This document shows, one piece after another, positions 12,849 to 62,702 of a stretch of 64,000 bases of DNA (positions are counted from its first letter, which is position 1; each line of letters begins with the position of its first letter). The notes under the pieces are model-generated. The model did not search any database and was not told the DNA's origin. It saw only the letters and a program-made list of their open reading frames with translations. Source of the DNA: an uncultured Gammaproteobacteria bacterium (lineage in GTDB: Bacteria; Patescibacteriota; Microgenomatia; Daviesbacterales; UBA10151); the NCBI GenBank assembly GCA_964649615.1, contig CAZYPW010000001.1, forward strand, positions 33,557 to 97,556, in the 5' to 3' direction. The position numbers and the translations under genes are program-made.

Positions 12849-12897
12849 ATATCCTTCGGCAGGCTCAGGACAGGCAATTTTGAGCTAGGTTTTGGGA

Positions 12898-15694: not shown

Positions 15695-15722
15695 AGTTCT
15701 GCCCTGCAGAACTTTTTAATTT
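15695..15722 (+). terminator. Rho-independent terminator (AGTTCTGC-CCT-GCAGAACT stem followed by TTTTTAATTTT).
   Basis: Perfect 8-bp stem followed by a T-tract, directly after the stop at 15658. Confidence 0.6.
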
Positions 15723-15748
15723 TAAATTGTAATTTTGAGTTTTGCATT

Positions 15749-28662: not shown

Positions 28663-28740
28663 AAAATGAAGCTAAGTTCGAATAAGCAAATCTTGCGATC
28701 CTTCGGATCTAAAGAACTATCTGGCTCCCCTGAGTTGGAG
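28663..28740. repeat. attL-like direct repeat: a partial copy of the tRNA-Asn 3' end (GGGGAGCCA) plus ~45 nt of its downstream flank, with a 27-nt hairpin insertion.
   Basis: AAAATGAAGCTAAGTTCGAATAAG...AACTATCTGGCTCCC matches 39003-39042. Confidence 0.7.
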
Positions 28741-28834
28741 CGCTTAGGACTAGCACTATTAGAATCAGAGGATGAATTCGAGCCTATCTTTATTTAATGT
28801 ATATTAACCTGGCTAGTACTTTTTATTTATAGGC

Positions 28835-30319
28835 ATGTTATTGTATTATTTGACAAACATGACAACCCAACTCCCTTTAATAGGCCAAAATTATGAGTCT
28901 GAAAATATTGAGAACAAAACTGTCGCTGAAGGTGAGGTACCACAGGATTTATGGGAACCAATATCTGCATTCAGTAATGCTGATGGTGGCCACATACGGC
29001 TAGGGGTTGATGGTAGTGGAAATAGGATTGGCGTTCCTCAGGAAAAAATCGAAAAACTACAAACGGATGTTATTACCTTATGTAGTTCAGGATTTAATCA
29101 TAGATTATACCCGGATTTAACTGTAGATCAGGATAATGTAATAAATGTGTACATTCCTCCCGCACCTGCTTCACTAAGACCAATATATTCAACTAGTCGA
29201 GGCGTTCCAAGAGGTGGTCGGGTTCGTGTTGGCCCTTCAAATGTTCAACTGGATGATGAATGGTTACGTCGTTTTGCTATTCAGGCTAGTGGTGGAGCAG
29301 AGTTACTAGTGTTCCCTGGAGACTATGAACAACATTTGGACACAAGTGCAATAAACAGATATTTAGAAGCTGTGAGAAAAAAGCGAGGGAACGTATATGT
29401 AAACTTATCTATTCAGGAAATTCTTTTAAAACTTAGGGCTATTACACCCGAAGGCATGGTTACTTTATTTGGCTTACTAGCTTTTAGCACACCGACCGCC
29501 TTACAAGAATTAACAGCCCCAACTGTCAATGTTGCAGTTACACAATATGCGGGCACAAATAAAGTAAATCCTAATGATATTGCGGAGGTTAGCTTAGATG
29601 ATAAAGAGTTTTCTGGAAATGTAGTTTCTCAATTTGAGAACGCTTTAAAATTTATATCATCTAAATTACCTACAAGAAGCAGGATAGATCCAGAAGGAAA
29701 AAGACAAGATTACCTTGCTATTCCCACATTAGCTCTTCGTGAAACTCTAGCTAATGCTCTTGTTCACAGAGATTATACTTCTACTGGAGGCAGGGTTCAG
29801 ATCGATTTATATACAGATCGTATTGAGTTTGCTAATCCGGGGAGAAGCTTAATACCCCTTGAGTTACTTGAGACGGCACATCCCCAGACACGTAATCCCC
29901 TCCTTATGAGCTATCTAAGAGATTTAGATATCACTGAACACAGAGGAAGAGGCATTAGAACCATTAAAACCTCGCTTAAATCAGCAGGGCTTGCAGAGCC
30001 AACATTTATCCATAAGCATGATTGGTTTGTGGCAACAATTTTCAGCTCCGCTTTCATTAAAGACGCTGATCAAATATGGTTACAACAATTCCAAGATCAG
30101 AAGTTAAGCGAACATCAATTAAATGCCCTCGTTCATGTTAAACATAACCCAAGTGGAATCAGCAATTCTGAATACAGAAACCTAAACAATATGACAAACG
30201 TCAGAGACGACATCAGGGCTAAAAAGGAATTAGCTAAGTTAACAAAACTTGGGTTATTCAACAAGGTAGGAGAAAATCGTTATCGTCGATACATACTAAA
30301 CCCAGAATTAACAGAATAA
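28835..30319 (+). CDS. Schlafen/AlbA_2 domain plus HATPase_c_4 (RecG-C-terminal-like) putative DNA-binding regulator.
   Basis: N-terminal WEPISAFSNADGGHIRLGV (AlbA_2). C-terminal ETLANALVHRDYTSTGGRVQIDLYTDRIEFANPG (HATPase_c_4-like). Confidence 0.55.
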   Translation: MLLYYLTNMTTQLPLIGQNYESENIENKTVAEGEVPQDLWEPISAFSNADGGHIRLGVDGSGNRIGVPQEKIEKLQTDVITLCSSGFNHRLYPDLTVDQDNVINVYIPPAPASLRPIYSTSRGVPRGGRVRVGPSNVQLDDEWLRRFAIQASGGAELLVFPGDYEQHLDTSAINRYLEAVRKKRGNVYVNLSIQEILLKLRAITPEGMVTLFGLLAFSTPTALQELTAPTVNVAVTQYAGTNKVNPNDIAEVSLDDKEFSGNVVSQFENALKFISSKLPTRSRIDPEGKRQDYLAIPTLALRETLANALVHRDYTSTGGRVQIDLYTDRIEFANPGRSLIPLELLETAHPQTRNPLLMSYLRDLDITEHRGRGIRTIKTSLKSAGLAEPTFIHKHDWFVATIFSSAFIKDADQIWLQQFQDQKLSEHQLNALVHVKHNPSGISNSEYRNLNNMTNVRDDIRAKKELAKLTKLGLFNKVGENRYRRYILNPELTE

Positions 30320-30425
30320 TTCTATCGACCTTTCTATCGACCCCCTCCTTATATGTGAAGAGCCGCCAAATGCGCTACAACGCCTTTTAGCCTTCTATCG
30401 ACCTTTCTATCGACTTTCTATCGAC
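30320..30425. repeat. Five copies of the 10-mer TTCTATCGAC in direct orientation (iteron-like).
   Basis: Copies at 30320, 30332, 30393, 30405 and 30416. Confidence 0.8.
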
Positions 30426-30555
30426 CATATTAACGAAGTTTAAGTGGTTACGGTTCATTACTCATTGCACACCCCAGAGTGTGGTAGGTAGACACCCTCT
30501 TTACAGCAAAAAGTGTTGTAAAAGTTTAATTTTAAGAGTAATATGATAAAAATCA

Positions 30556-30810
30556 ATGAAAAAATTACTTATTAACTTACTTCTTGGAATCTTTGTTTTC
30601 TCTATCCTTACCCCAATCAGCGTGGAGGCTGCTTCCAGAGTTAAAGGTTATACCAAGAAAAACGGCGCTTATGTTGCGCCCCACTACAGAAGCTCCCCTA
30701 ATAAATCAAAATTTGATAACTTCAGTACCAAAGGTAACTATAATCCATATACTGGTAAAAAGGGTACAGTAAATCCTTATAAATTCACACCCAAAAAATA
30801 CAAACGGTAG
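30556..30810 (+). CDS. Small secreted protein (signal peptide; Lys/Tyr/Pro-rich).
   Basis: MKKLLINLLLGIFVFSILTPISVEAAS signal peptide. Confidence 0.4.
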   Translation: MKKLLINLLLGIFVFSILTPISVEAASRVKGYTKKNGAYVAPHYRSSPNKSKFDNFSTKGNYNPYTGKKGTVNPYKFTPKKYKR

Positions 30811-30884
30811 TTGCTCCCCCGCGTGGATAATACACCCTCTGCTTCGCAGAGCCGAACAGCTAGCTTCTTACGAAGCGGCGCAGA

Positions 30885-32456
30885 TCAAACCACAGTTGAG
30901 GAAAAATTTTGACTTTTTGACGCAAGATCAAACGTCAAAATTTGCTCCCTTTGTAGGGAATTACCCGAATGAATAACAGGCTCATTTTTGGAAGGTTTCT
31001 TCAATATATCTTTCACTTCTGGTGATAGAATGGCATTTACAATCTTGCCTTTTTTAACTAAGAATCTTTCCCAGAATAAACCAAGGTAAAATCTTTTAAG
31101 CACTGGTTCTGCGTCCTCATAAGCCTGTCCTATATCTTGAGCTAGAGCTAATAGGCGTTGCACCACCTTTAATGACCTTTCATGGTTAGCTGTAACTTGA
31201 TTGAGTTGGTTTTTAATGCCTTTCAGATCAGCTTCATAACGAGGGTATATTCTTTGAAAACCTTCTGCGCTTAGAGTTTTGTGAATTAACCAGTTGTCCT
31301 CTGCTTCCCTCATAGCTGCCTCAATCTTTGACTGGCGGTTAATAAGAGTTTGAGATTCATTATCACTATTTTGTCTAAAATCTTCCAGGATATGCTTAGC
31401 TCTTTCTACCAGATCCTTAGCATAAGACTCACTAATTTGGATAGCATGAAACCAATCCTGTACTTCCTTCTCAAGGTCAGCTACTGTAACATAACTGCCC
31501 TTGCTACAGGTCTTACAATAATAATGTTCAAATATAAGACCATTCTTTTTAACATGCTTATCAGCCCAAAGCCTCCTATTACAAATAGCACAAAAGACAA
31601 AACCTCTTAAAAGGTAATTATGAACCCTTTGTCTGGAAGCATTTTGATTATGGGCAGTCATTACCTCTTGGCATAAATTAAAGGTTGCTTCATCTATTAG
31701 TGGGACATGCTCACCTCTATAAATTACCCCCTTCCAAGGCACTTTTCCAATATAAAGTGGGTCTCTAAGACAATACGCTAAAAGGCTGACTCCAACCTGA
31801 CCTCCTGTAGTTGATCTTAGCCCTAGTTCATAAAGGTGGTTTGACAATGCTTGTACAGAAAAGTTGCCAGTAGAATAGAGTTTGAAGGCTTGAGTCAAAT
31901 AAGTTCCTTTATCTGGGTCTACGCCAATAATCCTTTGGTCAAACTTGCTGATAGGTTTTTCGTTGAATACATTGATATAACCAATTTTGGGTTTACCAGG
32001 ATAGTAACCAGCCTTAGCTTTTTCCTCCATCACCTTTGATACTTTTCTGCCTGTAATTTGAGATTGGAAAGCATTAACGCCTGCAAGAATCGTATCAATC
32101 AAATTACCTTCTGCACTATCATCAATCATCAATTGGTTTATTGAGATAAGTTGAGTATTAGCCTTTTTCAAAAGAGCCTTAATAGTAAGATGATCTAGGG
32201 TATCACGGGCTAATCTATCCGTATCTAAAACCAAAATATAGTCTACATCGCCATCCTGAACCCTCCCTAGCATGTCTTTTAGACCAGCTCTGTTCATATT
32301 AGTGGCTGACTTACCTTCATCTTTATAAACCCCTATGATGGTCGTATCGTTATCTTCCGCCCATCTTCTGCATCTGTTTATTTGGGTATCAATAGAAAGA
32401 CCCTCTTCGGCCTGCTCATCAGTGGATACTCGTGAGTAAATTAAGGCTTTTTTCAT
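30885..32456 (-). CDS. Large serine recombinase (resolvase catalytic domain, recombinase domain, zinc ribbon).
   Basis: ALIYSRVSTDEQ...YILVLDTDRLARD catalytic domain. C-terminal CAICNRRLW...HYYCKTC. Confidence 0.85.
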   Translation of the reverse strand: MKKALIYSRVSTDEQAEEGLSIDTQINRCRRWAEDNDTTIIGVYKDEGKSATNMNRAGLKDMLGRVQDGDVDYILVLDTDRLARDTLDHLTIKALLKKANTQLISINQLMIDDSAEGNLIDTILAGVNAFQSQITGRKVSKVMEEKAKAGYYPGKPKIGYINVFNEKPISKFDQRIIGVDPDKGTYLTQAFKLYSTGNFSVQALSNHLYELGLRSTTGGQVGVSLLAYCLRDPLYIGKVPWKGVIYRGEHVPLIDEATFNLCQEVMTAHNQNASRQRVHNYLLRGFVFCAICNRRLWADKHVKKNGLIFEHYYCKTCSKGSYVTVADLEKEVQDWFHAIQISESYAKDLVERAKHILEDFRQNSDNESQTLINRQSKIEAAMREAEDNWLIHKTLSAEGFQRIYPRYEADLKGIKNQLNQVTANHERSLKVVQRLLALAQDIGQAYEDAEPVLKRFYLGLFWERFLVKKGKIVNAILSPEVKDILKKPSKNEPVIHSGNSLQREQILTFDLASKSQNFSSTVV

Positions 32457-32632
32457 ATCCCACCTTTCTTTATAAGATCAAGTAGCTGGTTCTCCTCGTA
32501 TCTGCGGTGCTTTCCGCTGCCGATTCTTATTGCTTTCAATCTACCACTTTTGTCCCAACGCCTAAGGGTTAGAGGTGTTACTCCAAGTAGTTGAGCTGCC
32601 TGTTTAATGTTTAAAAGTTTATAATCAGTCAT
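32453..32632 (-). CDS. Small MerR/excisionase-type HTH protein (59 aa), translationally coupled to the recombinase (ATGA overlap). Not in the ORF track.
   Basis: MTDYKLLNIKQAAQLLGVTPLTLRRWDKSGRLKAIRIGSGKHRRY. Confidence 0.55.
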   Translation of the reverse strand: MTDYKLLNIKQAAQLLGVTPLTLRRWDKSGRLKAIRIGSGKHRRYEENQLLDLIKKGGI

Positions 32633-32891
32633 CTTAATCTACCTTAATCAATATTTATCATTGGTGTCAAGATACCAAAGTATCTAACATCAGAGTATTT
32701 AATGTGTTCAAAATGTGTAGTTTGATTCGTCTCATATTTATTCTTATATATTGTCATTTAAATCTTTAACACCAAGGGCGGATGGCGGTAATAATTTACT
32801 TTGTACAAGTAAGATAGTTGCTAATCTTTTAGCAAAAAGGTCTTTCCTACCATGGTCTGGTGTTTTACCAGAAGTTGCAGCAGGAATCCTC

Positions 32892-34085
32892 TTACTTTTC
32901 ATCTTCGGCAACCCCTTCCGCTTTGTCCTCTACTTCCTGATCTATAAGTATATAGAGCTTTTTATTGCCTTGAACTACATAATCTATCTTCCTTAATTCT
33001 AGAAGCTCTCTTGCGGCGTTTTTGACTGTCGTAGACCCATACTTACCAGTTGGTGTTAATTTTTGGATTATTTCTGTTTGGCTCTGAATACCTGATTCTA
33101 AAAGAGATAAGATATCCTCTTTAGCCTGATCAACTTTTTCTACCTCAGACTCAAGGAAATCTAAAAACTTGAAGCCTGTATCGCCATCTGTAAAAGTGGG
33201 AAATTTAACCAAAAAGGATTCTATCGGCTTATCTGATCTTAAAGCGGCCTGGGTGATTTTGAGTGTTAGATCATCTTTTCTTTCAACGATTAAAAGGCAA
33301 TCTAGCATGGCCAAGATGTCACTTGAGCCTCTTAACTTATCTCCAGCTTCCCTCTTAAAAAATCCTTCCTTTCCATGGTGATGAATGAATATTATGCTGA
33401 CACCCAACTCAAGCAATATCTTAAATCTATATTGAACTTCGGCAATTACCTGTGAGCTATTCTCTTCCCCCTTAAAAATGCGTCTAAAACTGTCAACGAT
33501 GATTACCTTTATATTTTTATCTTGAATAATTTTGATAACTTCATTCATAAATCTATCTGTGTCTAGAAATAATTTGGTATCCGTACAGAAATAAATGGGT
33601 AATGTTTGATTATCAGTAAGTAGTTTAATCCTCTCTTGAATCAGTTTTTGAGGGTCTTCTTTACTGATAAACAAAACTGCGCTTTGTTGAGTTTCAAATT
33701 CATCCAAAAACTTTGCTCCTAATGCTAAACAGATCGCCAAATAGAGTGCCCAGAAACTCTTACCAACTTTTGGTTTTCCAGATATACAGGTAATTCCGTT
33801 GTCTGGTACTAAACGATCAACGATCCATTTATTGGGAGGGAAATCTTTTTGCCTAAGTTCCTCTAGAGAAACTACATCCAGGGTGGGAGTATTATTGGTC
33901 AATGGGTCATTACTATATATACTCTGACTTGTTGACTGGGACGGATCAGCTTCAACAGGTAGCTGGGCAGAACCATTTGTTGAATTAGATGTAGGTTGGT
34001 CTTCTTTCTCCTGCTCTGATAAATAGTGACTTAGTTCGTCAATTTCTTTATTACTAAGTTGTTCCTCATCCATATCAGCCTCCAT
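32892..34085 (-). CDS. AAA_25/RecA-like (RepA/DnaB-like) replication ATPase with an acidic N-terminal region.
   Basis: ISGKPKVGKSFWALYLAICLALG...VIIVDSF...SIIFIHHHGKEG. Confidence 0.6.
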   Translation of the reverse strand: MEADMDEEQLSNKEIDELSHYLSEQEKEDQPTSNSTNGSAQLPVEADPSQSTSQSIYSNDPLTNNTPTLDVVSLEELRQKDFPPNKWIVDRLVPDNGITCISGKPKVGKSFWALYLAICLALGAKFLDEFETQQSAVLFISKEDPQKLIQERIKLLTDNQTLPIYFCTDTKLFLDTDRFMNEVIKIIQDKNIKVIIVDSFRRIFKGEENSSQVIAEVQYRFKILLELGVSIIFIHHHGKEGFFKREAGDKLRGSSDILAMLDCLLIVERKDDLTLKITQAALRSDKPIESFLVKFPTFTDGDTGFKFLDFLESEVEKVDQAKEDILSLLESGIQSQTEIIQKLTPTGKYGSTTVKNAARELLELRKIDYVVQGNKKLYILIDQEVEDKAEGVAEDEK

Positions 34086-34317
34086 ATATCCTGCTTTTTA
34101 GAAATCTTTGAGCTTCCCAAAATGAATTAGGTTCAACCTTTAAAGTCCGTTGCCAAAACAGCTCTATAATTTGTTGGAGTTCTTTTGTTTGAGGGAATAT
34201 AAAAATGGATTTACCCTCTGGAGTTTTCTCAATAGAATCAAGTGAAATACCTAAACTAATTAAAGTAGCTGCGACAGGTAACGAAACAGTTTCATAGTAA
34301 GTCTCATTTTTATTCAT
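34075..34317 (-). CDS. Hypothetical small protein.
   Basis: ORF only; overlaps the RepA-like gene start by 11 nt. Confidence 0.3.
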   Translation of the reverse strand: MNKNETYYETVSLPVAATLISLGISLDSIEKTPEGKSIFIFPQTKELQQIIELFWQRTLKVEPNSFWEAQRFLKSRIYGG

Positions 34318-34419
34318 GATCTAATTTTCGATCTTTTAGAGGGGGATGAATATGGAATAATTTTAGATTTTGAGGCTAATTTATAAGCAAAAAGGGGATA
34401 TTAGGGGAAAAGATAATTC

Positions 34420-35253
34420 CTATGTCCTAGTGACTTCACAATCTAACATATAACCACTAGGGGTAGTAGTTATGCTCTCACTCCCAAGTTTACGCTTTAT
34501 TGCCTTAATTGCATCCTTAACTCTATCTTTGGGTGATGAGCTGTCAGCATGTTGTCTTAATGTTTTAAGACAAGCAACAAGCTCTCCTGAAAGATATGGG
34601 GTTTTAGGATTAGCAGCTAGGTGCGTTATTAAATTATATTCAGTTGTATCTCTACGAAATTGGGCTGTTGTCTCTTTGCCCTCCTTTGAAGTAAATCTAA
34701 ACTCCCCTGTACGCAAGTTTATTGTCAATTTGGGAAAATTATTAGATGATGCTTCATTAAACTTTTTAGCTTGTACCCCAGTCTCCTTTATAAATTTTTG
34801 ATCTTCATTCTTAATGGTTAGTCTATAATCTTCACATGCTTCCAAGGCTTTTTTTAAAATGATTACCTCTTGACTTGATAAAGAAACCTTTGGTTCTCCA
34901 TTTTTGATATAAATTTCTTCTACTTGTGAGGCAAATTTCACCACCCTAGGTCTAATATCTTGTTCCCAAACATCACCACTTTCCTCACTAATTGAGCCTT
35001 CTAGGTTCTCTACAGGTCTTAAGTAATCATTAACAAGTTTTATTAATTCAGAATCTTTTGAGAACTCATTCTTTATATACCCTAGTAAGTCCTCTATTAA
35101 AATACATAGGTGTAAATAGCTTTTGTTCAGTATGGGTGAAGCTACAACAATAAACTCTCCTGATTCAAATTGGGTTTTTAGAAGGTAGATCAGTATCTGA
35201 TAGTATTCTTTGAGCCGATATAGAGCATCATCTTTATTCATTTTTATTTTCAT
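34420..35253 (-). CDS. Protein with a C-terminal OmpR/PhoB-type winged-helix DNA-binding domain (no receiver domain).
   Basis: C-terminal ...TEYNLITHLAANPKTPYLSGELV...RVKDAIKAIKRKLG...TTTPSGYMLD. Confidence 0.45.
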   Translation of the reverse strand: MKIKMNKDDALYRLKEYYQILIYLLKTQFESGEFIVVASPILNKSYLHLCILIEDLLGYIKNEFSKDSELIKLVNDYLRPVENLEGSISEESGDVWEQDIRPRVVKFASQVEEIYIKNGEPKVSLSSQEVIILKKALEACEDYRLTIKNEDQKFIKETGVQAKKFNEASSNNFPKLTINLRTGEFRFTSKEGKETTAQFRRDTTEYNLITHLAANPKTPYLSGELVACLKTLRQHADSSSPKDRVKDAIKAIKRKLGSESITTTPSGYMLDCEVTRT

Positions 35254-35529
35254 TCTTATATTTAGGCCTAATTCTACAATAGAATAAAAAATTAGGTTGT
35301 GTAAGCAGAAGTTCTACTATTTTGGCTTATAAATAAGAAAAAAAATAACATTTATATAATAGTTTAGCTATAAATATATGTTTTATTGATACTAAAAATA
35401 TGTACACTTAACATCTTTGATAAGCTCAAAGATATACTTACTTTGTAAACTATTTATGAAAATTCTCACAGTGTAGCAAAGAGTGTTATGGCAACTATTT
35501 CAAGGGTGAATTTCCATCTGTACCACCCC

Positions 35530-35994
35530 CTAAAAGGCGAATCCCAATTGTTCTGATGCCCAAAGAAACCCTAAAATTCCGCCAAAAATTAAAAAGGATA
35601 AAGCCATCTTATCATTACTTCGCAAACCTTCTTTCCCAAAAAATAGTTCCACCACAAATACGGGAACAAGCATTGTAACAACTCCAAACCAAAAAAATAC
35701 AAAAGACAAGACAAAAGCAGCAATATTTCCTATCGGAAAGGTGCTATTAATCAAAGACCTCTCTTCTCGAAAAATGTACCAATTTATTATTATTCCACCC
35801 ACTAAGGCCATAATTAAAGATGCTTTAAAAAGTATTTTTGTAGAATTAAGTTGTTGCTCCTTAATTTTAACTTCTGTCGCTTCACCCACATTATGAGTAT
35901 GCTTAGTAAAATTATCAGTTGTAATTATCCTATTTGCTTTATATCTAAAAGAAGGATTAATGATTCGTTTATTCATATAGATATGTCGTAGCAA
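35530..35994 (-). CDS. Hypothetical membrane protein (3-4 TM helices).
   Basis: Hydrophobic ORF. Confidence 0.4.
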   Translation of the reverse strand: MLRHIYMNKRIINPSFRYKANRIITTDNFTKHTHNVGEATEVKIKEQQLNSTKILFKASLIMALVGGIIINWYIFREERSLINSTFPIGNIAAFVLSFVFFWFGVVTMLVPVFVVELFFGKEGLRSNDKMALSFLIFGGILGFLWASEQLGFAF

Positions 35995-36114
35995 CTACCT
36001 GCCAGTTTATTCTCTGCTAGATTATCTTGATAATATACTCTAAGTCATTCAAAAAGCAAGATATATCTAGTAAAGATTTCTCTAGCAATCTACTAAGTTA
36101 GTAGGTGGATTGCT

Positions 36115-36327
36115 ATGAACTATAATTTTCTTTATAAAAATCTTGCTGGAAATATAGAAAAACTAAGAAAAGAGAAGGGAATGACGCAAGAGAAATTGGC
36201 GGAAAAGGCTGGATTGCATAGAGCCTACTTTTGGGATATTGAAAATGGCAGGAATATATCAATCAAAACTGCTTATAAAATCGCCCATGCTCTCGGAGTA
36301 AAGCTATCAGAGCTGTTTAATTTTTAA
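36115..36327 (+). CDS. XRE-family HTH transcriptional regulator.
   Basis: LRKEKGMTQEKLAEKAGLHRAYFWDIENGRNISIKTAYKIAHALGVKLSELF. Confidence 0.8.
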   Translation: MNYNFLYKNLAGNIEKLRKEKGMTQEKLAEKAGLHRAYFWDIENGRNISIKTAYKIAHALGVKLSELFNF

Positions 36328-36379
36328 CCTTCACCCCCTGCTGGATCGGTAATTTTCTCTCTGTTATACTCGCAGTAAT

Positions 36380-37501
36380 ATGATTAGGAATTTTAAACCT
36401 AATAAAAATCCTCCTCTTTCTGGATTGGATCGTATTAGGGCATATAACCAAAATCAAAAAATTTGGGAATATCTCAAGCGGTATCAAAGTAATAGTTTTG
36501 TTCAGAAAAAGTTGAGGAGAGAGATAACTAGAAATAGAGGACAAATAAATTTAAAAGCAGCCCAAATATCCTCTTTAATGGTTCAGAGCGAAAAATACTA
36601 TGAAGCAGCTGTTAATGCACCTTTAGAAATTAAGCCCCTTATTCTGTATTACGGAATGGTGGGATTGTCCAAATCTCTTATTCTTTCTGGAGATAATACC
36701 TACACTCTATCAGCACTAGCACCTGATAATAGAGATCATTCAACTCATGGATTAAAGTTTGGTACTCAAAACCCCAATGATATATCTATTAGAGATGGAA
36801 AAAGAATATCAAATGAGTTTTGTTATGCAGCAACTTCACCAACAAGAATCGGATTATACAATTTATTAAGAGCTTGTTACTCAAATACTCCTATACCAAA
36901 TGATACTCGTGTTGCTATACAGGACTTACTTTCCCTCGTACCTGAAATTTATAAAGAATATCGTGCTTACTTTAAGCAAAAACCTCGCTCTTGGGGAGCT
37001 GATGCTCATTTTGGGGTAAATAATATTAACGATACAATACAGTTGATAGTATTTGAGGATTGGTACTACCATACTCAACAAATTAACAGAAGAGAAAGAT
37101 ACCCAAATAGTATTCTAAGAAATTTCCCAGAGCTTAGTACGCTTTATACAAGAGAACCAAACTCAGATGATAAGTTCAGACTTAATAATAATGCGGTAAG
37201 CATTGATGACTATATTTATGTTAGTCAGCTTATGACTTTAGAATCTTTTGCACTTAAAAGATTAAATGGTTTTAGTGTGTCAGACATAGATATACACTTT
37301 ATTTTAATGTATATCCTAAGTAATTTAGTACGTTATAGACAAGACAAGTGGTCAAGGCTTATCAGAAGATTAGATAATGATGAAATGTTTTTAATTGAAA
37401 GTTTTATTGAAATATCTTCCGTTAAATTTCCTTATGTAATTTTAAGAGAACTAGATAATATTGATTATGTTTTTACAGGACAGGTTGCTACCTGGAGCTG
37501 A
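36380..37501 (+). CDS. YaaC-like protein (function unknown).
   Basis: The region YYEAAVNAPLEIKPLILYYGMVGLSKSLIL resembles the conserved core of B. subtilis YaaC as I recall it. Confidence 0.5.
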   Translation: MIRNFKPNKNPPLSGLDRIRAYNQNQKIWEYLKRYQSNSFVQKKLRREITRNRGQINLKAAQISSLMVQSEKYYEAAVNAPLEIKPLILYYGMVGLSKSLILSGDNTYTLSALAPDNRDHSTHGLKFGTQNPNDISIRDGKRISNEFCYAATSPTRIGLYNLLRACYSNTPIPNDTRVAIQDLLSLVPEIYKEYRAYFKQKPRSWGADAHFGVNNINDTIQLIVFEDWYYHTQQINRRERYPNSILRNFPELSTLYTREPNSDDKFRLNNNAVSIDDYIYVSQLMTLESFALKRLNGFSVSDIDIHFILMYILSNLVRYRQDKWSRLIRRLDNDEMFLIESFIEISSVKFPYVILRELDNIDYVFTGQVATWS

Positions 37502-37505
37502 TCCG

Positions 37506-38174
37506 ATGAAGGATGAAAATATACTTAGAATTAAATTTAATGGTAGAAGTTTAATTAAGCTGATAAGGTCAGCCAAAGGAAGGGACTTTTTATTATCCAC
37601 ACCTACTATCAAAAATAAGGGGTATTTTGTGAGTAACCATTTTACATTACATACACCAAATAGTAGATTAACCTGGAAAATTACTAAAGTTAAGGAAGGC
37701 GATCAAGACGCTTTAAAATCAATGCTTTATTTAGTAAAAGATCACCCAGTTTATAAAAAGAAGGTAACATACCACGCAGATGGAGTAACTCCAAAAGACT
37801 TAGATATGTATGAGGGAAAAATATTGGACTTGAGTAATCCATCAGAATTTCAATTTGGAACAACTGTAGCTTTAAATATGGAGAATACTTCAATTGATGA
37901 ATACTTTGATCCAGCAAAGACGAAGGATAGAGAGTTTAAGTGGCTCAAAGACATTGTCATACCAAAAGTTTTCAAAGACAAAGTCACAATCAGATGGTTC
38001 ATATCTAAAAACTTTCAAGGGAGGATCACAGAGTTTGTAAAGGGGTATAAAGAACCAATAGATGATTATTTTTTGATTCGGGAACTAAACAGCACAGGGG
38101 AAGAATATACCTTCTTATTTATCATTATCTATGGTTTTCCTGAATTAAAGGATAAGGATAAAAAAACCTATTAG
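37506..38174 (+). CDS. Hypothetical protein, operonic with the YaaC-like gene (4-nt gap).
   Basis: ORF only. The start is assigned to the ATG at 37506 rather than the overlapping upstream start. Confidence 0.4.
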   Translation: MKDENILRIKFNGRSLIKLIRSAKGRDFLLSTPTIKNKGYFVSNHFTLHTPNSRLTWKITKVKEGDQDALKSMLYLVKDHPVYKKKVTYHADGVTPKDLDMYEGKILDLSNPSEFQFGTTVALNMENTSIDEYFDPAKTKDREFKWLKDIVIPKVFKDKVTIRWFISKNFQGRITEFVKGYKEPIDDYFLIRELNSTGEEYTFLFIIIYGFPELKDKDKKTY

Positions 38175-38195
38175 AAAACTTTAACTTGTAAATCT

Positions 38196-38897
38196 TTAGA
38201 CTTTTGTTTTTAGAGAGTTATTGCCTCTGTTATACTTACCCCTCAATACTTGAGCTTTCTCTGGCAAGATATAAGCATTTCGGAGGGTAGTTTCAATAAT
38301 ATCCAGTCCAGTGTTCAGCTCTTCTTCAAGCGGTTCTTGTAATTCATGAGCAGAAGCATTTCCCATATATCTATTAAGATGGAGTAACTCTGCTTCTTGA
38401 TCAGTCATCAAACCCATCTTGGCTAATCCGTCAATTTTTTTCTCAAGGTCACCAGTAATTATACCTTTATCTTTACATATTGCTTCGATAACGGCTCGCA
38501 TACCAATACTTGTAAGTATTGGTAATTTTTTATTAAAGGCCGTGACACACTCTTTGTATATTCTTGCAACAATTTTAGGTATATAGTGATGATCTTCTAT
38601 TGGGGTTTTTGTTTCGTGAGGGGATGGATAAATTGTTGTAACTACATCAAACTCTCCAGTTTGAGGATTATAATCTTCACTAAATACGTATTCTTCTAAA
38701 AGGCAAACCGCCTCACAGCCTTGACATTGGAGCGTATAGAAGGTAGAGACTGTCCACATCCCATCCTCGTTGTCCCAACTATCCTTTTTTTGAACTTTAA
38801 ATAAAATTTTGTGATTGGTGGCTTGCTTGCATATCCTGCAAAAAATCTTTCTCGTTTCTTCTATATTCTTTTTTCGAGTTTTGCTTAGTGGACTCAT
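38196..38897 (-). CDS. DUF4145-domain protein with an N-terminal CxxC...CxxC zinc ribbon.
   Basis: N-terminal CRICKQ...CQGCEA. C-terminal helical domain ending ...NRYMGNASAHEL (DUF4145-like). Confidence 0.5.
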   Translation of the reverse strand: MSPLSKTRKKNIEETRKIFCRICKQATNHKILFKVQKKDSWDNEDGMWTVSTFYTLQCQGCEAVCLLEEYVFSEDYNPQTGEFDVVTTIYPSPHETKTPIEDHHYIPKIVARIYKECVTAFNKKLPILTSIGMRAVIEAICKDKGIITGDLEKKIDGLAKMGLMTDQEAELLHLNRYMGNASAHELQEPLEEELNTGLDIIETTLRNAYILPEKAQVLRGKYNRGNNSLKTKV

Positions 38898-39002
38898 TCA
38901 GCAGATGTTACCACATTTTTAGATTCTAACTTCTTACAAACCCAGCAGGGTCTAAGGTAGAAAGTTTATTATAAAGACTTACTACAACTTGTTCATTTAT
39001 CA

Positions 39003-39042
39003 AAAATGAAGCTAAGTTCGAGTAAGAACTATCTGGCTCCCC
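39003..39042. repeat. attR-like direct repeat overlapping the 3' end of tRNA-Asn.
   Basis: See 28663-28740. Confidence 0.7.
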
Positions 39043-39304
39043 CGCGTGGATTCGAACCACGAACCTTGATCTTACAAGTGCTCCTAATTTACATCAGGAC
39101 TTGGACTATCTCATAACCTTAGCTTTCTTTAGGTTCCGGGCGTATAGTCTCTGAACCTTCCCCGATTTCATCGGGGCTTGGCTGCGGATTATCCTTCGAT
39201 TACACTCAGGACTTCCCGACAATTAACCCAGTTTTTCAACTCCGATTTCTCGGAGAAGCTGCAATATTTTACAGGATCCCGCTCTACCATTGAGCTACAG
39301 GGGA
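39034..39304 (-). tRNA. tRNA-Asn (GUU) interrupted by a 196-nt group I intron in the anticodon loop. Exon 1 is 39271-39304 and exon 2 (with CCA) is 39034-39074.
   Basis: Joined exons: TCCCCTGTAGCTCAATGGTAGAGCGGGATCCTGT|TAAGATCAAGGTTCGTGGTTCGAATCCACGCGGGGGAGCCA. This closely resembles E. coli tRNA-Asn, with anticodon loop CTGTTAA. Confidence 0.75.
39075..39270 (-). other. Group I intron (196 nt, no ORF).
   Basis: The 5' exon ends in U and pairs with the internal guide GCAG, giving a U-G wobble at the splice site. A P2 hairpin CTCCGA-GAAA-TCGGAG is present. Conserved R element GTTCAGAGACTATA and S element GAGATAGTCC form P7. The intron ends in G. Confidence 0.75.
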
Positions 39305-39557
39305 ATATATTAAATTTTTAATGAACCTTTTCCCATGTAGCAACAACCCGCTCTTCCTGGGTGAACTTGAAATTATATTTCTGCTTCGCAGATAAAATGT
39401 TGTTCACCCGCTTAAATGTCATTTAGACATTTAAGCCCATTTCGCTACAGGGGATTGTTAATGTACCTTTGGAATTTTACCATTTTAAAGACTCTAAATC
39501 TATATTTCTGAACCTATATATTCAAACCTGGGTTTTTTAATTCCCAGAACTTCCACT

Positions 39558-40829
39558 TCAGGCTATATTATATAATTTATTCAGGAAATAAATCATTGGT
39601 AATAGTGAGACAAAAAATAAAGCAAAACTTACTAGGATTAATTTCTTTCTAATTAATCCCATTTTAGGCATTAATTCAGAAGTTGTTTTTGAGATAATTT
39701 TAGCTAACCACCACAAATTAAAACTCCACAACATCACATTAGCTAAAAAGTAAAGATAAATATGTTTTGTTTGATAGGGAGGGGTACTATAAAGCTTACC
39801 CAATAAAATATCTGGGGCAAAAAATAAATAAAAGCTAATCAAAACTATTGCTCCTAAAATAGCATAAATAAAAATTCTTTTGTCCCTTTCTAAAATAGCT
39901 AAGGGAATTATCCAAACTAAATACTGGGAAGCAATACCAAAATAAGCAGTTAAAAATAAAAGATAAATAATCAGGCAAGCTTTAGCTAAATGTTTCCAGC
40001 CTGCTAAAAGCATTATCAAAGCAGTAGCTGAGTAGAGAAAAATAAATTTGCTGGCAGATAAAAAATCAGCAGCTAAAGGTAGGGTAGTTTGAGCATTATG
40101 TTGATACCAAAGCCCCCTTAAAATAGCTGCATAAGAAATATCTCCTATGCCAGAATAAGTTAAGGTACGGGTTAAAATCTGCACAGGGTTTTGCACTATA
40201 AAAGGAATAAAGCTGATCATTAATGGAGATAAAATTAATCCTAGATAAGTAATTTTTTGTTTAAAAGTGCTATTTTTGTACAGTATAAAAAGAGGAATCA
40301 GCATAGCTGGATTGGGTTTAATGGCCAAAGCTATTCCTAAACTTAAAGCACTGAAATAAGTATGGGTTTTTTTGGAGCTAAAAGTTATAAGATAAATTGC
40401 TAAAACTGTGAGCATAGAGGTGATGGAGTCAAGCTGGCCATGGGCAGAAGAAATTAAGATAGAGATAGGATTTAAAAGATAAAAAACACTCCATAAAGCA
40501 GCCTGAGGGGGTTTAACTTTAATTTTAACTAAAAACTTATAAATCAGGAAGCTGCAGATAAAATCTGCTAAATTAGGCCATAGTTTAAAAACTGCCACAA
40601 AAGACATCTGCCAGACTGCAGAGATCTTCATGGATAGGCCTTCCAAAAAAATGGCTAAAGGAGGATAATTATTAAAATCCAAAACTAAATAGGGATTTCT
40701 GCCTTCTAAAAAAGCTGCTCCCATGTTATACATTAGATAAATATCTGCAGTATGCACACTTTGGGAGATAAAAAAGACTCTAATAATTAAGGATGTTAAG
40801 ATACCAAAAATAAAAATAATTTTTACCAT
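39558..40829 (-). CDS. Polytopic membrane protein (>10 TM helices); possibly a GT-C/DUF2029-type glycosyltransferase.
   Basis: Hydrophobicity pattern only. Confidence 0.35.
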   Translation of the reverse strand: MVKIIFIFGILTSLIIRVFFISQSVHTADIYLMYNMGAAFLEGRNPYLVLDFNNYPPLAIFLEGLSMKISAVWQMSFVAVFKLWPNLADFICSFLIYKFLVKIKVKPPQAALWSVFYLLNPISILISSAHGQLDSITSMLTVLAIYLITFSSKKTHTYFSALSLGIALAIKPNPAMLIPLFILYKNSTFKQKITYLGLILSPLMISFIPFIVQNPVQILTRTLTYSGIGDISYAAILRGLWYQHNAQTTLPLAADFLSASKFIFLYSATALIMLLAGWKHLAKACLIIYLLFLTAYFGIASQYLVWIIPLAILERDKRIFIYAILGAIVLISFYLFFAPDILLGKLYSTPPYQTKHIYLYFLANVMLWSFNLWWLAKIISKTTSELMPKMGLIRKKLILVSFALFFVSLLPMIYFLNKLYNIA

Positions 40830-40830
40830 A

Positions 40831-41316
40831 CTAAATTAAGCTTTTTGTTGTATCTACAGTTTGTTGAATTTTTTCCCAATTAGGAGAATTAGCAGGATAA
40901 ATATCACGCAGCCTTTCTAACATTTTAAGATAATTTTTGATTTTTAATTTATCATTTGCATCTGGTGGATAATTTAATTTAGTTTTACCTACAAAAGTAT
41001 TGTAACGGTCAGCAGCATAAGGGATAAACCCTTCTTTTTTAAAATTGATAATAAAAGTAAGCTCTTTAAGCCTTTTTTCCAGCAGTTGGTAGGCGTATTC
41101 TTTTTTCAGATTATTTGGTATAAAAGTTAGCTTAATTTGCTCATAACCTCTTTTTAAAGGATAGATTAAAAGATTAGGGTTAATTTGTTCGTAACTTATA
41201 AATCCAAAGGATTTAAGTTCATCCTCAGTTAAAAAAGTTTTTTCTTTAGCAAAAGCAGTAGAGGAAAGGAAAAATAGTAAGCAAATTAATAAACTTAAAA
41301 TTTTATATTTGGTCAT
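40831..41316 (-). CDS. Secreted hypothetical protein (signal peptide).
   Basis: MTKYKILSLLICLLFFLSSTAFA signal peptide. Confidence 0.4.
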   Translation of the reverse strand: MTKYKILSLLICLLFFLSSTAFAKEKTFLTEDELKSFGFISYEQINPNLLIYPLKRGYEQIKLTFIPNNLKKEYAYQLLEKRLKELTFIINFKKEGFIPYAADRYNTFVGKTKLNYPPDANDKLKIKNYLKMLERLRDIYPANSPNWEKIQQTVDTTKSLI

Positions 41317-41337
41317 TTTATATATAATAGCCTGTAT

Positions 41338-41808
41338 ATGAAATCTATTCTAGAGATTAGCCAGTTATCCTGGCTTTCTCAAAAACTAAAAAGGGAACAT
41401 AAAAAGATAGTATTGGTAGGCGGCTGTTTTGATGTGATACATCCTGGCCATATTATCTTTTTAGAAAAAGCTAAAAGAGCGGGAGACATTTTAATTGTTC
41501 TTTTAGAAAGTGACCAAAAAATCAAGCTGTTAAAAGGTATTAATAGGCCTTTTTTTACTCAACTAGATAGGGTAGAAGTGTTATCTTCCATTAAATTTGT
41601 TGATTTTGTGGTGCTTTTGCCTTTTATAAGCAAAGACAAAGAGTATGATCAATTAATTTTAAAGATTAAACCAGACATCATAGCTGCTACCAAAAATTCC
41701 TCAGGAAACAAACATCCAATAAGAGCAGCCAAACTGGTGGGAGCACAACTAAAATATGTTACTAAAATAGTAGGAAACTATTCCACCAGTAGAATTCTGA
41801 ATAAATAA
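41338..41808 (+). CDS. HIGH-motif cytidylyl/adenylyltransferase-family protein (RfaE-domain-II/TagD-like).
   Basis: VLVGGCFDVIHPGHIIFLEKAK. Confidence 0.6.
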   Translation: MKSILEISQLSWLSQKLKREHKKIVLVGGCFDVIHPGHIIFLEKAKRAGDILIVLLESDQKIKLLKGINRPFFTQLDRVEVLSSIKFVDFVVLLPFISKDKEYDQLILKIKPDIIAATKNSSGNKHPIRAAKLVGAQLKYVTKIVGNYSTSRILNK

Positions 41809-41826
41809 TTTGTAATATAATAGTTT

Positions 41827-42495
41827 GTGAGAACTTCTTTATTCGCCCTTTTTTTAATAACTCTCTTGGGATTTGTGGCCTTTTCCTATACTGTGGCCAA
41901 AGAAAGCTGGCAAAGAATAGATTTTGATACCACTGTCAAAATACAAGACCGTATCCCTAAGCAGTTTGATGATAAATTTTCTTATTTTTCACTTTTGGGT
42001 AGTGCAGAAGCAACTGTGGGTTTTTGTTTAATTATGGCACTGCTGGCTTTAATCAGGCTTAAATTATTTTCTCTTTTAGGATGGTTAATGATAATTCCAG
42101 CTTCAGCAGTTGAGGTTTTTGGAAAATTAGTGCTTTATCATCCAGGCCCGCCTAGGTTTTTCCAGCGGACTACTTTAGCCACCCACCTGCCCTCATTTTA
42201 TGTCCATACTGAATTTTCTTACCCTTCAGGGCATATGACCAGGACTATTTTTATCATCACCACTTTAATTTGCCTTACTTTTACTTCAAAAATTAACTCT
42301 TTAGTTAAATACTTTTTAATATTCAGCCTACTAGGTTTGGGATTTTTAATGGCTTTAACCCGAGTTTCTTTAGGGGAACATTGGTTGTCAGATGTTTTAG
42401 GAGGCAGTTTACTGGGAGTCTCTATGGGGTTTTTGGCAGCCATGTTGCTTTTATCGCGAAGAGAGAAACTTGCTTCATTGCCTAAGAGGGTGTAA
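41827..42495 (+). CDS. PAP2-family membrane phosphatase.
   Basis: YPSGHMTRT and SLGEHWLSDVLGG motifs. Confidence 0.7.
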   Translation: MRTSLFALFLITLLGFVAFSYTVAKESWQRIDFDTTVKIQDRIPKQFDDKFSYFSLLGSAEATVGFCLIMALLALIRLKLFSLLGWLMIIPASAVEVFGKLVLYHPGPPRFFQRTTLATHLPSFYVHTEFSYPSGHMTRTIFIITTLICLTFTSKINSLVKYFLIFSLLGLGFLMALTRVSLGEHWLSDVLGGSLLGVSMGFLAAMLLLSRREKLASLPKRV

Positions 42496-49118: not shown

Positions 49119-49189
49119 AGGCCCGTCGTATAATGGTAATACCTGATTCTTATACAATCAAGACGAGGGTTCAATTCCTTCCGGGCCTA
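49119..49189 (+). tRNA. tRNA-Ile (anticodon UAU).
   Basis: Acceptor AGGCCCG/CGGGCCT, D-arm GTAT-AATGGTA-ATAC, anticodon stem TGATT/AATCA with loop CTTATAC, T-loop TTCAATT. Confidence 0.65.
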
Positions 49190-49208
49190 CATAATTCTGG
49201 TCCGCCCA

Positions 49209-52117: not shown

Positions 52118-52280
52118 GAGGCTATTATATCACCAATTTAAGGACTTTTCAAGGACTAAAATAAGTGATATGATTCAGCAATGAAAATACAATGTCCATC
52201 ATGTAAAAAATTTAAAGATTCTAACTATACCATCCAGGTGGTTAAAATTTGAGACTAAAGCCCTTCGATTACACTCAGGG

Positions 52281-52640
52281 TTATAATGTTTTAAGTTTTT
52301 CTAAGTCTCTTTTTATTAATGCTTCTTTCTTAGCTCTAGTCCAACCTTTAAGTTGTTTTTCTCTTTTCATAGCCTCAAGCAAGATAGGATAGTTTTCTGA
52401 ATAAATTAGTTTAAATTCTCCATTTTCTTTTGAAAATTTAGAAGCTCTTGTAGCTTTGTTTTTATGATCTGTTAATCTTTGTGCAAGATTATTTGTTTGG
52501 CCAATATATAAACTGTTGTTTAAAAATCGGAGTATGTAGACAGTATAGGGCATGGACGCTATATCCCTTCGACTCGATGACTCGCTCAGGCCTTCGGCTC
52601 TGAGGCTCAGGCTCGAAGAGGCGATTCGACTTCTGAACAT
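52281..52640 (-). CDS. GIY-YIG nuclease-family protein, copy 2. It has a repeat-derived N-terminal extension, and the core probably starts at the MPYTVYIL Met (~52520).
   Basis: MPYTVYILRFLNNSLYIGQTNNLAQRLTDHKN...GWTRAKK. Confidence 0.7.
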   Translation of the reverse strand: MFRSRIASSSLSLRAEGLSESSSRRDIASMPYTVYILRFLNNSLYIGQTNNLAQRLTDHKNKATRASKFSKENGEFKLIYSENYPILLEAMKREKQLKGWTRAKKEALIKRDLEKLKTL

Positions 52641-54572: not shown

Positions 54573-55886
54573 ATGAAAATAATTGTTTTAGCAGGTGGGG
54601 AAGGTAAAAGGATGTGGCCTATCCAAACAGACAAATGTCTGATCCCTTTTTTGGGTCAACCCCTTTTGTCCCATAACTTAAAAAAAATCAAAGATGTAGT
54701 AGATGGGGAATTTGTCATAATTTCTTCGCCTTCCAGTAAGGATGGGATAGGAAAAGTAGCTTCAGAGTTGAAATTACATTACAAAATAGCTGTTCAAAAT
54801 GAACCTAAAGGTATGGCTGATGCCCTACTCTCTGCAAAAGAATATCTGGAAGGAGAAGTTTTAGTGGTTAATGCTGAAGATATTTTGGACCCTGGGGCAT
54901 TTGAGATTAATAGGGAAGTAGATGTGAGCCTTGTTGGATTAAAAGTAGACAAATATTTTCCAGGAGGATATTTAAGGGTAGAAGGGGAAAGCCCTTCGAC
55001 TTCGCTCAGGGTTGGTAAGGTACAGGGAATAGTAGAAAAGCCAGGAGAGGGAAATGAACCATCAGATATGGTGAAGTTGGTAGTAGATTATTTTAAAGAC
55101 GGGAAAAAGTTAGTGGAATATTTAGAAAATGCTAAATCAGAGGTAGATGATGTTTATGAAAAGGCTTTAGATCAGATGATTTCTGATGGACTAGAAGTAA
55201 AGTTTAAAGAATATAGTGGAGTATGGATTCCATTAAAATATCCATGGCAGATTTTAGATATGCTGGCTTACTTTTTGGACAATATTGAACAACAGATTTC
55301 CCCGGGTGCAAATGTGTCTGAAAAGGCCATTATTGATGGAAAAGTAGTGATTGAAGAGGGAGTCAGAGTGTTTGAAGGAGCTGTAATTAAAGGTCCCTGC
55401 TATATAGGTAAAAATGTCATTGTGGGAAATAATTCCATGATCCGGGAATCTGAGCTGGAAGAGGGTTGCGTGACAGGCTTTAATTCTGATATTACCAGAA
55501 GTTACATTGGAGCAAATTCCTGGTTTCATACCAATTATATTGGGGATTCTGTGATAGAGGGAGATTTTGGGATGGGTAGTGGAGCAGTTTTGGCAAATTT
55601 AAGGCTGGATGATCATACAATCAGAGTACATGTGAATGGAGAATTAATTGATTCAGGAAGGCACAAGCTAGGGCTGATTGTGGGGAAGGGCTCAAGAGTG
55701 GGAGTGAATGCTTCAACCATGCCAGGGGTTAAGGTTGGTTCAAATTCATTTGTAGGGCCTGGAGTGACTTTATATGATGATGTAGAGGATAATAAGAAGG
55801 TTTTGGTAAAACAGGAGTTGGAAGTAACTGAACATACTCCAGCATTAACCAGCTATGATCAGTTTAGAGATAAGTTAGAGAAATAG
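54573..55886 (+). CDS. Sugar-phosphate nucleotidyltransferase with a C-terminal left-handed beta-helix (hexapeptide-repeat) domain.
   Basis: N-terminal IIVLAGGEGKRMWP, C-terminal hexapeptide repeats. Confidence 0.75.
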   Translation: MKIIVLAGGEGKRMWPIQTDKCLIPFLGQPLLSHNLKKIKDVVDGEFVIISSPSSKDGIGKVASELKLHYKIAVQNEPKGMADALLSAKEYLEGEVLVVNAEDILDPGAFEINREVDVSLVGLKVDKYFPGGYLRVEGESPSTSLRVGKVQGIVEKPGEGNEPSDMVKLVVDYFKDGKKLVEYLENAKSEVDDVYEKALDQMISDGLEVKFKEYSGVWIPLKYPWQILDMLAYFLDNIEQQISPGANVSEKAIIDGKVVIEEGVRVFEGAVIKGPCYIGKNVIVGNNSMIRESELEEGCVTGFNSDITRSYIGANSWFHTNYIGDSVIEGDFGMGSGAVLANLRLDDHTIRVHVNGELIDSGRHKLGLIVGKGSRVGVNASTMPGVKVGSNSFVGPGVTLYDDVEDNKKVLVKQELEVTEHTPALTSYDQFRDKLEK

Positions 55887-62627: not shown

Positions 62628-62702
62628 ATCTCAAATCTTTTTAAGTTTTTAGATTTGAACTGTAGTTTTGAGTTTTGCGATTTGCGTTTTGAGATAAACA
62701 TT

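Follow-up and report, generated by a model that had tools for sequence, protein, structure and literature searches.

A predicted compact group I intron between anticodon positions 35 and 36 of a Patescibacteria tRNA-Asn(GUU) gene

Results

An interrupted tRNA-Asn gene and its host

The window, by which we mean the whole 64,000-nucleotide stretch of DNA that was analysed, carries on its minus strand a tRNA-Asn(GUU) gene split within the anticodon (Table 1). The gene was missed by a default ARAGORN run over the window, and the intron option was needed to call it: with introns allowed, tRNA-Asn(gtt) is found at c[39034,39304], interrupted after position 35 by an intron of 196 nt. The 5' exon, TCCCCTGTAGCTCAATGGTAGAGCGGGATCCTGT, has the 3'-terminal letters ...GGATCCTGT, the intron runs from AAAATATTGCAG... 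to ...GCACTTG, and the 3' exon, TAAGATCAAGGTTCGTGGTTCGAATCCACGCGGGGGAGCCA, starts with TAAGATC and ends with GGGGGAGCCA, so that the insertion lies between anticodon positions 35 and 36 (CCTGT / intron / TAAGA). Only this splice-site pair gives both a U at -1 and a terminal G. A reading made from the sequence only had proposed a 196-nt insert after U35, at 39075-39270, and ARAGORN with introns allowed places it at exactly those coordinates. When the exons are joined, ARAGORN folds a canonical 75-nt tRNA-Asn(gtt) with a full cloverleaf, discriminator G and CCA, and with one G27.A43 mismatch in the anticodon stem. Over its first 25 nt the 5' exon matches a published WWE3 tRNA-Asn exactly. Neither Rfam nor intron-aware ARAGORN found a second tRNA-Asn within the 64-kb window.

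The nearest named proteins to the window's thioredoxin reductase (TrxB), at 75-79% identity, are from Candidatus Daviesbacteria and Microgenomates, and the gene order PAP2, TrxB, NAD-binding reductase, 781-aa protein, tRNA-Ile(UAU) is common to Daviesbacteria contigs. These identities and this gene order therefore place the host in the Patescibacteria, class Microgenomatia, close to Daviesbacteria.

Table 1. Coordinates of the split tRNA-Asn gene, the proposed intron helices, the adjoining island and the hairpin family
Feature	Position	Strand	Basis
tRNA-Asn(GUU) 5' exon, positions 1-35, last nt U35	39304..39271	minus	ARAGORN, introns allowed
Group I intron, 196 nt, without ORF	39270..39075	minus	Rfam RF00028; bounds by ARAGORN
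P1, exon CUGU with guide GCAG (intron nt 9-12)	39259..39274	minus	Sequence, homologue alignment
P2 hairpin, 6 bp, GAAA tetraloop, nt 16-31	39240..39255	minus	Covariation
P3 5' strand, nt 40-45, partner 39136-39141	39226..39231	minus	84% of cells paired
P4-P5 domain	39183..39221	minus	Rfam alignment; P4 helix 94% of cells paired
P5 (nt 60-79) with tip hairpin CCUGAG-UGUAAU-CGAAGG, tandem G.A; the 18-nt repeat	39192..39211	minus	
P6/P6a hairpin CCCCGAU-GAA-AUCGGGG, nt 89-116	39155..39182	minus	Rfam alignment
P7 5' strand, nt 120-127, within R, A121 bulged	39144..39151	minus	
P3 3' strand, nt 130-135, directly after P7	39136..39141	minus	
P8 hairpin with CCUAAAG...CUAAGG, nt 136-156	39115..39135	minus	88% of cells paired
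P7 3' strand, nt 162-168, within S	39103..39109	minus	
P9 hairpin, 7 bp, GUAA tetraloop, nt 172-189	39082..39099	minus	Covariation
Terminal G (omega G), G196, 3' splice site	39075	minus	Invariant column in alignment
tRNA-Asn 3' exon, U36 onwards, discriminator G, CCA encoded	39074..39034	minus	ARAGORN, introns allowed
16-nt tRNA 3'-end segment GCTCCCCCGCGTGGAT	39036..39051		Repeat comparison
Exact 16-nt copy of GCTCCCCCGCGTGGAT, distal boundary of ~8.2-kb island adjoining the tRNA	30813..30828		
Large serine recombinase gene, 56 nt from distal repeat	30885..32456	minus	Pfam Resolvase, Recombinase, Zn_ribbon_recom
Second remnant: last 9 nt of tRNA (TGGCTCCCC) and copy of its downstream flank	28663..28730		
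Identical 18-nt hairpin copy, 2 nt past GIY-YIG stop codon	52262..52279	minus	
Small GIY-YIG nuclease ORF	52281..52640	minus	Pfam PF01541, E 4.5e-17
Two long-loop hairpin copies just upstream of GIY-YIG start codon	52612-52565		
Hairpin variant overlapping end of cobalamin riboswitch	1037-1054		
Hairpin variant with 5-nt loop	12851-12868		
Hairpin variant within NTP-transferase gene	54993-55010		

Fold of the intron

The insert matches the Rfam group I intron model RF00028, the search that had been named as the check on its identity, over the full model (positions 1-253; minus strand 39280..39082), with 92.1 bits against a gathering score of 50 and an E value of 2.4e-22. No further group I introns were found in the window, even at a relaxed Rfam threshold. 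The minimum free energy of the intron has a z-score of -3.4 relative to shuffled sequences. The sequence and the Rfam alignment served as the basis for a hand-drawn P1-P9 structure with a P3/P7 pseudoknot.

In P1, which has the U35.G9 wobble at the 5' splice site, two A-U pairs and a loop of AAUA complete the helix. All 16 homologues keep the guide GCAG, and 15-16 of the 16 keep the exon side. The P4 strands, 39215-39221 and 39183-39188 (nt 50-56 with 83-88, U52 bulged), enclose P5. The R element (GTTCAGAGACTATA) lies at 39156..39143 and the S element (GAGATAGTCC) at 39112..39103, and the P7 helix that they form, which crosses P3 in the group I pseudoknot, is the proposed guanosine-binding helix. 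P7 (..AGACUAUA) runs straight into P3' (CGCCCGG), so that the intron is without P7.1/P7.2. The P8 sequence would appear to resemble an 11-nt tetraloop receptor. P10 is weak, with 1/3 of the possible pairs. Most of the hallmarks listed in the sequence-only reading are thus present as it described them: the U-G wobble facing the guide GCAG, the GAAA-capped P2, R and S elements forming P7, and the 3'-terminal G. Its second GAAA-capped hairpin stands as a hairpin (P6a, CCCCGAUGAAAUCGGGG) but not in its cap, which is a UGAAA pentaloop or a GAA triloop; the second true GNRA loop is the GUAA on P9.

Homologues and covariation

Species-representative genomes were scanned for a compact core, defined as P7 followed directly by P3', P8 and P7', and at least 119 loci in many phyla were obtained. 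Among the matches listed, which include neither the source genome nor a close relative of it, the best BLAST match to the window intron is locus L072, at 67%. Boundaries were set by joining all U/G splice combinations and running the products through ARAGORN. A tRNA solution was found for 24 of 124 core matches, with several alternative anticodons each, and all solutions other than GUU or GUC at position 35 were discarded. By this procedure the scan yielded at least 14 further tRNA-Asn(GUU) genes with a 35/36 intron, of 184-327 nt, including introns of 184, 188, 189, 193 and 196 nt.

The window intron and 15 compact relatives, four of them published Patescibacteria introns and 11 from the scan, were aligned with MAFFT (n=16; 12 tRNA-Asn and four tRNA-Asp introns). 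In this alignment 84.5% of the cells of the hand-drawn structure are paired, and a slide of the 3' partners by 1-3 columns lowers this to 33-47%. Changes on both sides are seen at 36 of the 58 pairs, and the observed values were reached in 0/500 shuffles. Every pair of P2 (6/6) and P9 (7/7) has changes on both sides among the homologues, and covariation is also seen in P1, in P3, in P4 and at the base of P8. P7 is near-invariant, with six of its seven pairs present in 16/16 homologues and the remaining one in 15/16. P6a is 46% paired, and this length-variable hairpin is misaligned by MAFFT. The compensatory changes, together with the slide and shuffle controls, thus support the other helices and the P3/P7 pseudoknot. 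There is also a pattern among the peripheral elements: homologues with an 11-nt receptor in P5 have a GAAA L9, and those with a plain P5 helix have GUAA or GCAA.

Relation to published introns

Is tRNA-Asn an unusual host for a bacterial group I intron, as the sequence-only reading had suggested? It is not. Nakagawa et al. (mSystems 2026; PMC13011429) surveyed 95 complete Patescibacteria genomes and counted 22 tRNA genes with an intron; 15 of the 22 are tRNA-Asn(GUU), the commonest intron-bearing tRNA in the phylum, and three are tRNA-Asp(GUC), the intron lying at 35/36 throughout these two groups. Across 4,934 complete genomes the same authors list 28 introns at 35/36, among them tRNA-Asn introns of Bipolaricaulota, Cyanobacteriota and Nitrospirota, and they name Williams (bioRxiv 2020, 10.1101/2020.01.27.920355) as the first to have mapped the class, under the label 'Asn.4Ug'. 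They also report precise self-splicing in vitro for one tRNA-Asn intron (GCA_016700035.1) and one tRNA-Asp intron (GCA_001029755.1), and note that standard tools often miss such genes or call them tRNA-Thr or tRNA-Ala. The other claim of rarity, that 196 nt is the small extreme for such introns, also fails: published lengths are 184-894 nt, including compact Patescibacteria introns in tRNA-Asn (205 nt) and tRNA-Asp (184 and 196 nt) (PMC13011429), and at least four of the scan's tRNA-Asn introns are shorter than 196 nt, so that the window intron is near the small end of the range, not at it.

Identities to the published sequences (PMC13011429, Tables S3 and S4) were computed over aligned columns. 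The window intron is ~82% identical to a Paceibacteria tRNA-Asn intron and ~79% identical to the in vitro-validated Saccharimonadia tRNA-Asn intron of GCA_016700035.1; overall its identity to published tRNA-Asn introns is 76-82%, against a baseline of 69% for the Nostoc tRNA-Leu IC3 intron. With the Patescibacteria Asn 35/36 introns it shares the host tRNA, the site, the phylum, the pairing of guide GCAG with exon CUGU, the core strings AATTG.GGGAA, AATCCGCAGCCAAG, GGTTCAGAGACTA and GAGATAGTCC, and the G end before TAA. The 3' end GCACUUG/UAA is common to the window intron and the Collierbacteria and Bipolaricaulota tRNA-Asn introns. Most published members, however, are 222-262 nt (without a homing endonuclease), have a P7.1/P7.2 insert between P7 and P3', and carry in P5 a CCUAAG/UAUGG receptor paired with a GAAA L9, whereas the window intron is without P7.1/P7.2, has a GUAA L9, and has a dispersed genomic hairpin as its P5 tip. 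The Microgenomatia tRNA-Asp(GUC) intron of GCA_001029755.1 is similar in host class, 35/36 site, length (196 nt) and the direct run of P7 into P3'; it differs in its host tRNA, in an identity of only ~66%, and in the P4/P6 core, which is CCCGAGCTAAAT there and CCGCAGCCAAG in the window intron. By these comparisons the intron belongs to the published Asn 35/36 (Asn.4Ug) class, and in itself it is nothing new.

The tRNA 3' end as an attachment site

The proposal that the same tRNA serves as the attachment site of an integrative element is supported by the exact 16-nt repeat of its 3' end, by the serine recombinase gene near the distal repeat, and by the second remnant (Table 1). The ~8.2 kb between the repeats holds genes for an AAA_25/DnaB-like ATPase, DUF5659, YaaC-like and DUF4145 proteins. 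In the second remnant the copy of the tRNA 3' end is at 28712-30, two exact 19-mers are held in common with 39003-39042, and a 28-nt insert contains a hairpin. The simplest reading of this arrangement is that two islands were inserted in tandem at the tRNA-Asn 3' end. Among the relatives compared at the tRNA locus, neither an empty site nor an intron-less allele was found: the L203 contig (same strain as L204) breaks 21 nt into the tRNA, and L205 and L120-122 are not syntenic.

A dispersed hairpin and GIY-YIG genes

The 18-nt segment CCTGAGTGTAATCGAAGG that forms the P5 tip (39193-39210) does recur elsewhere in the window, as had been remarked, in an identical copy beside a GIY-YIG nuclease gene whose true start is probably the ATG at 52553. 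This gene is flanked on both sides by hairpin copies. The variants in the window are of the form CCTGAG-N5-6-CGAAGG; for CCTGAG-N6-CGAAGG, four copies are observed in the window and 0.16 are expected by chance, the 5-nt-loop variant at 12851-12868 coming in addition to these four. The motif folds into a short stem interrupted by a tandem G.A internal loop, and its general form is CCYGAG-N4-7-CGARGG. In 80 metagenomic loci with GIY-YIG relatives the strict motif occurs 21 times (chance estimate ~0.2), and a compensatory variant, CCCGAG..CGAGGG, is also seen. In 36/80 of these loci a relaxed motif lies upstream of the nuclease domain, at most 150 nt away; it mostly ends 13-38 nt before the domain and is on the gene strand. 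In 9/80 it lies just downstream of the gene. In related tRNA introns the motif is found in P6, reversed in L072 and L053 and in the sense orientation in L009; the reversed copies are an argument for its spread as DNA. No Rfam family was found for the hairpin, and a literature search by the peptides typically translated from it gave no relevant report. It was also considered as a hammerhead, rejected for want of a GA after CUGAN, and as a kink-turn, rejected for want of a 3-nt bulge.

Discussion

We conclude, with a probability of about 0.93, that the insert is a functional, ORF-less, self-splicing group I intron of the published Asn 35/36 class, lying at U35/U36 of tRNA-Asn(GUU) in a Daviesbacteria-like Patescibacteria host. 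How would it splice? The pathway we propose follows the general group I pathway and the in vitro assays of homologues; what the sequence supplies is the fold, the splice-site nucleotides and a tRNA that can be restored. As the pre-tRNA folds, pairing of exon CUGU with the guide GCAG in P1 would bring the U35.G9 wobble to the active site. P7 would bind a free guanosine, which would then attack at the 5' splice site, after U35, and the terminal G (39075) would next occupy the guanosine site in P7. The freed 3'-OH of U35 would attack at the other splice site, so that U35 becomes joined to U36 and the anticodon is again GUU; the ligated 75-nt tRNA would read ...CCUGUUAAGAUC... At the periphery, L2 (GAAA) probably docks on the receptor-like P8, and L9 (GUAA) probably docks on the CC:GG pairs of P5.

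Might the gene instead be a decaying tRNA-Asn pseudogene with a dead intron, the work being done by an intact second tRNA-Asn elsewhere? The splicing of this copy is predicted, only 64 kb of the genome lie within the window, the gene borders on island DNA, and the anticodon stem has its one G.A mismatch. On the other side, all core helices are intact, the near-invariant P7, the guide GCAG, the U at -1 and the terminal G are kept, and the exons yield a full cloverleaf with discriminator G and CCA; no other tRNA-Asn lies within the window. With P7 and the guide, the two splice-site nucleotides and the cloverleaf all preserved, we regard decay as very improbable. The identity of the host tRNA can be questioned too, since ARAGORN and tFind call many such genes tRNA-Thr(UGU) with an intron at 33/34. 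A two-base ambiguity of this kind is given for most Patescibacteria tRNA-Asn introns (PMC13011429, Table 1), and our brute-force splicing also yielded several alternative anticodons. A shift of two bases here, however, would make the intron end in ...CACT, without the terminal G, and would leave U33 without a U.G wobble to the guide; moreover, the 5' exon opens with the same 25 nt as the WWE3 tRNA-Asn, the discriminator is G, and intron-aware ARAGORN calls Asn(gtt). The tRNA-Thr(UGU) reading is excluded, to near certainty, because its intron would end in T.

What is the descent of so small an intron? The Azoarcus sp. BH72 tRNA-Ile(CAU) intron, of subgroup IC3, is ~205 nt long, has a minimal P1-P9 layout, lies in the anticodon loop and has no ORF. 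Two GNRA tetraloops are docked in it, L2 on P8 and L9 on P5. It was reportedly described by Reinhold-Hurek and Shub in 1992. In layout, which is as far as this comparison goes, the window intron is a ~200-nt minimal P1-P9 ribozyme of the same kind; the two differ in tRNA, insertion site and phylum. The cyanobacterial and plastid tRNA-Leu(UAA) IC3 intron likewise lies in the anticodon loop and shares core motifs (AAUCC.GAGCCAAG and GCAGAGACU) and 69% identity, but it is inserted at 34/35, is 249 nt long, has a larger P6 and P9 periphery and belongs to another host phylum. One might think of an IC3-type intron, like those of Azoarcus tRNA-Ile and cyanobacterial tRNA-Leu, that was acquired sideways and does not descend within Patescibacteria tRNA-Asn. 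The absence of P7.1/P7.2, the structural hallmark of subgroup IA, fits that idea, as do the minimal P1-P9 layout of ~200 nt and the pair of GNRA loops, both also features of the Azoarcus intron, and the core strings AAUCCGCAGCCAAG and GGUUCAGAGACUA, which resemble IC3 cores.

Nearly all introns at 35/36 have been assigned to subgroup IA (PMC13011429), and relatives labelled IA1 have ~35 nt between P7 and P3'. The main difference between the window intron and its longer relatives is a clean deletion between those two strands. Its best matches, moreover, are tRNA-Asn 35/36 introns (76-82%, versus 69% for the Nostoc IC3 intron), it has the GCACUUG/UAA 3' end of the Collierbacteria and Bipolaricaulota tRNA-Asn introns, and compact Patescibacteria introns, in tRNA-Asn (205 nt) and in tRNA-Asp (184 and 196 nt), have already been published (PMC13011429). 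We consider sideways acquisition improbable, and descent within the tRNA-Asn lineage the likelier course. From the insertion site, core strings and 3' end shared with IA1-labelled and Collierbacteria tRNA-Asn introns, together with the published compact Patescibacteria introns, we read the window intron as a deletion derivative of the tRNA-Asn 35/36 lineage.

The hairpin family is possibly the only new lead here, and it is separate from our verdict on the intron. We raise, tentatively and as less likely than not, the idea that the hairpin may be either a miniature mobile element, as yet undescribed, or the site that a selfish GIY-YIG gene targets, and that it settles in the tolerant outer loops of Patescibacteria group I introns.

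The value of the intron is practical rather than conceptual. Default annotation overlooks the tRNA-Asn, so that a genome would seem to be incomplete, which is the point made by PMC13011429, and the present case indicates that the compact form without P7.1/P7.2 occurs in Microgenomatia tRNA-Asn. The adjoining islands suggest that an intron-bearing tRNA can still serve as a site of island integration. The presence of the dispersed hairpin in P5, for its part, bears on the interplay of small selfish elements and group I introns in reduced genomes.

Dispersed hairpin near GIY-YIG genes

A small hairpin recurs at scattered places in the window, with the consensus CCYGAG-N4-7-CGARGG and an internal loop of tandem G.A, and copies lie on both flanks of the small GIY-YIG nuclease gene. 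The association extends beyond this genome: among 80 metagenomic loci encoding relatives of the nuclease (L123-L202), 36 have the hairpin immediately upstream of the GIY-YIG homologue. Several group I introns of tRNA genes also contain it, in either orientation, in their P5 or P6 helices, namely that of the window tRNA-Asn (39193-39210) and those of three loci from our compact-core intron scan (L072, L053 and L009). Rfam holds no family for this hairpin, and our literature search found no account of it.

One copy overlaps the 3' end of a cobalamin riboswitch in this Patescibacteria genome and is closely followed by a ribosome-binding site, with an ATG near position 1076. Both this copy and the one at 52279 are preceded by the same 12 nt, ACATTATAACCC.

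Features of the window and of related loci (window positions unless a locus is named)
Feature	Position	Strand	Size or score	Remark
Hairpin copies	52262-52279, 52565-52612, 39193-39210, 54993-55010, 12851-12868, 1037-1054			
GIY-YIG nuclease gene	52281..52640			hairpins on flanks (52262-52279, 52565-52612)
Cobalamin riboswitch	867-1054		67.5 bits	
Apparent first island	30829-39035		~8.2 kb	large serine recombinase adjoining 16-nt tRNA-end repeat
Apparent second island	28731-30812		~2.1 kb	Schlafen/AlbA_2-HATPase_c_4 gene
Iteron-like copies	30320-30437			five
Inverted repeats	9064-9163, 13924-14023		100 nt each	93% complementary
T-rich repeats	9136-9191, 11603-11658, 13957-14012, 15710-15765, 62643-62698		56 nt	five members
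tRNA-Ile(UAU)	49119-49190			
tRNA-Ile(UAU), Daviesbacteria contigs	L120 15217-15289; L121 10545-10617; L122 8789-8861			
23S rRNA intron, L001	1950-2246	-	87.8 bits	
23S rRNA intron, L020	1524-1765	+	71.7 bits	

Islands and repeats

The tRNA-Asn 3' end appears to carry two islands in tandem (28663-39051). At the end of the smaller one is a tRNA remnant of 9 nt, after which comes a copy of the downstream flank of tRNA-Asn. To our knowledge, tRNA genes are uncommon targets of serine recombinases. In the distal island, iteron-like copies of TTCTATCGAC(C) stand immediately past the Schlafen-like gene.

Elsewhere, two inverted repeats enclose 4.7 kb and overlap members of a T-rich family composed of TTTTGA-like heptamers; together these repeats could represent a transposon or other mobile element.

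tRNA genes and rRNA introns

Among the compact-core matches listed, L001 and L020 are group I introns in archaeal-type 23S rRNA genes, from bins labelled Woesearchaeota and Thermoproteota. Nawrocki et al. reportedly described group I introns in archaeal rRNA in 2018, and these two introns fit that report.

A tRNA-Ile with anticodon UAU follows the gene for a 781-aa DUF8128 protein and is present at the equivalent syntenic position in three Daviesbacteria contigs. It suggests that AUA decoding in this lineage does not rely on a lysidine-modified tRNA-Ile(CAU).

The same strain has a public assembly from short reads, whose contig L203 (window 41910..39284) ends 21 nt inside the 5' exon of tRNA-Asn. 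Short-read assemblies may frequently lose tRNA genes that are split by an intron and lie at a contig end.
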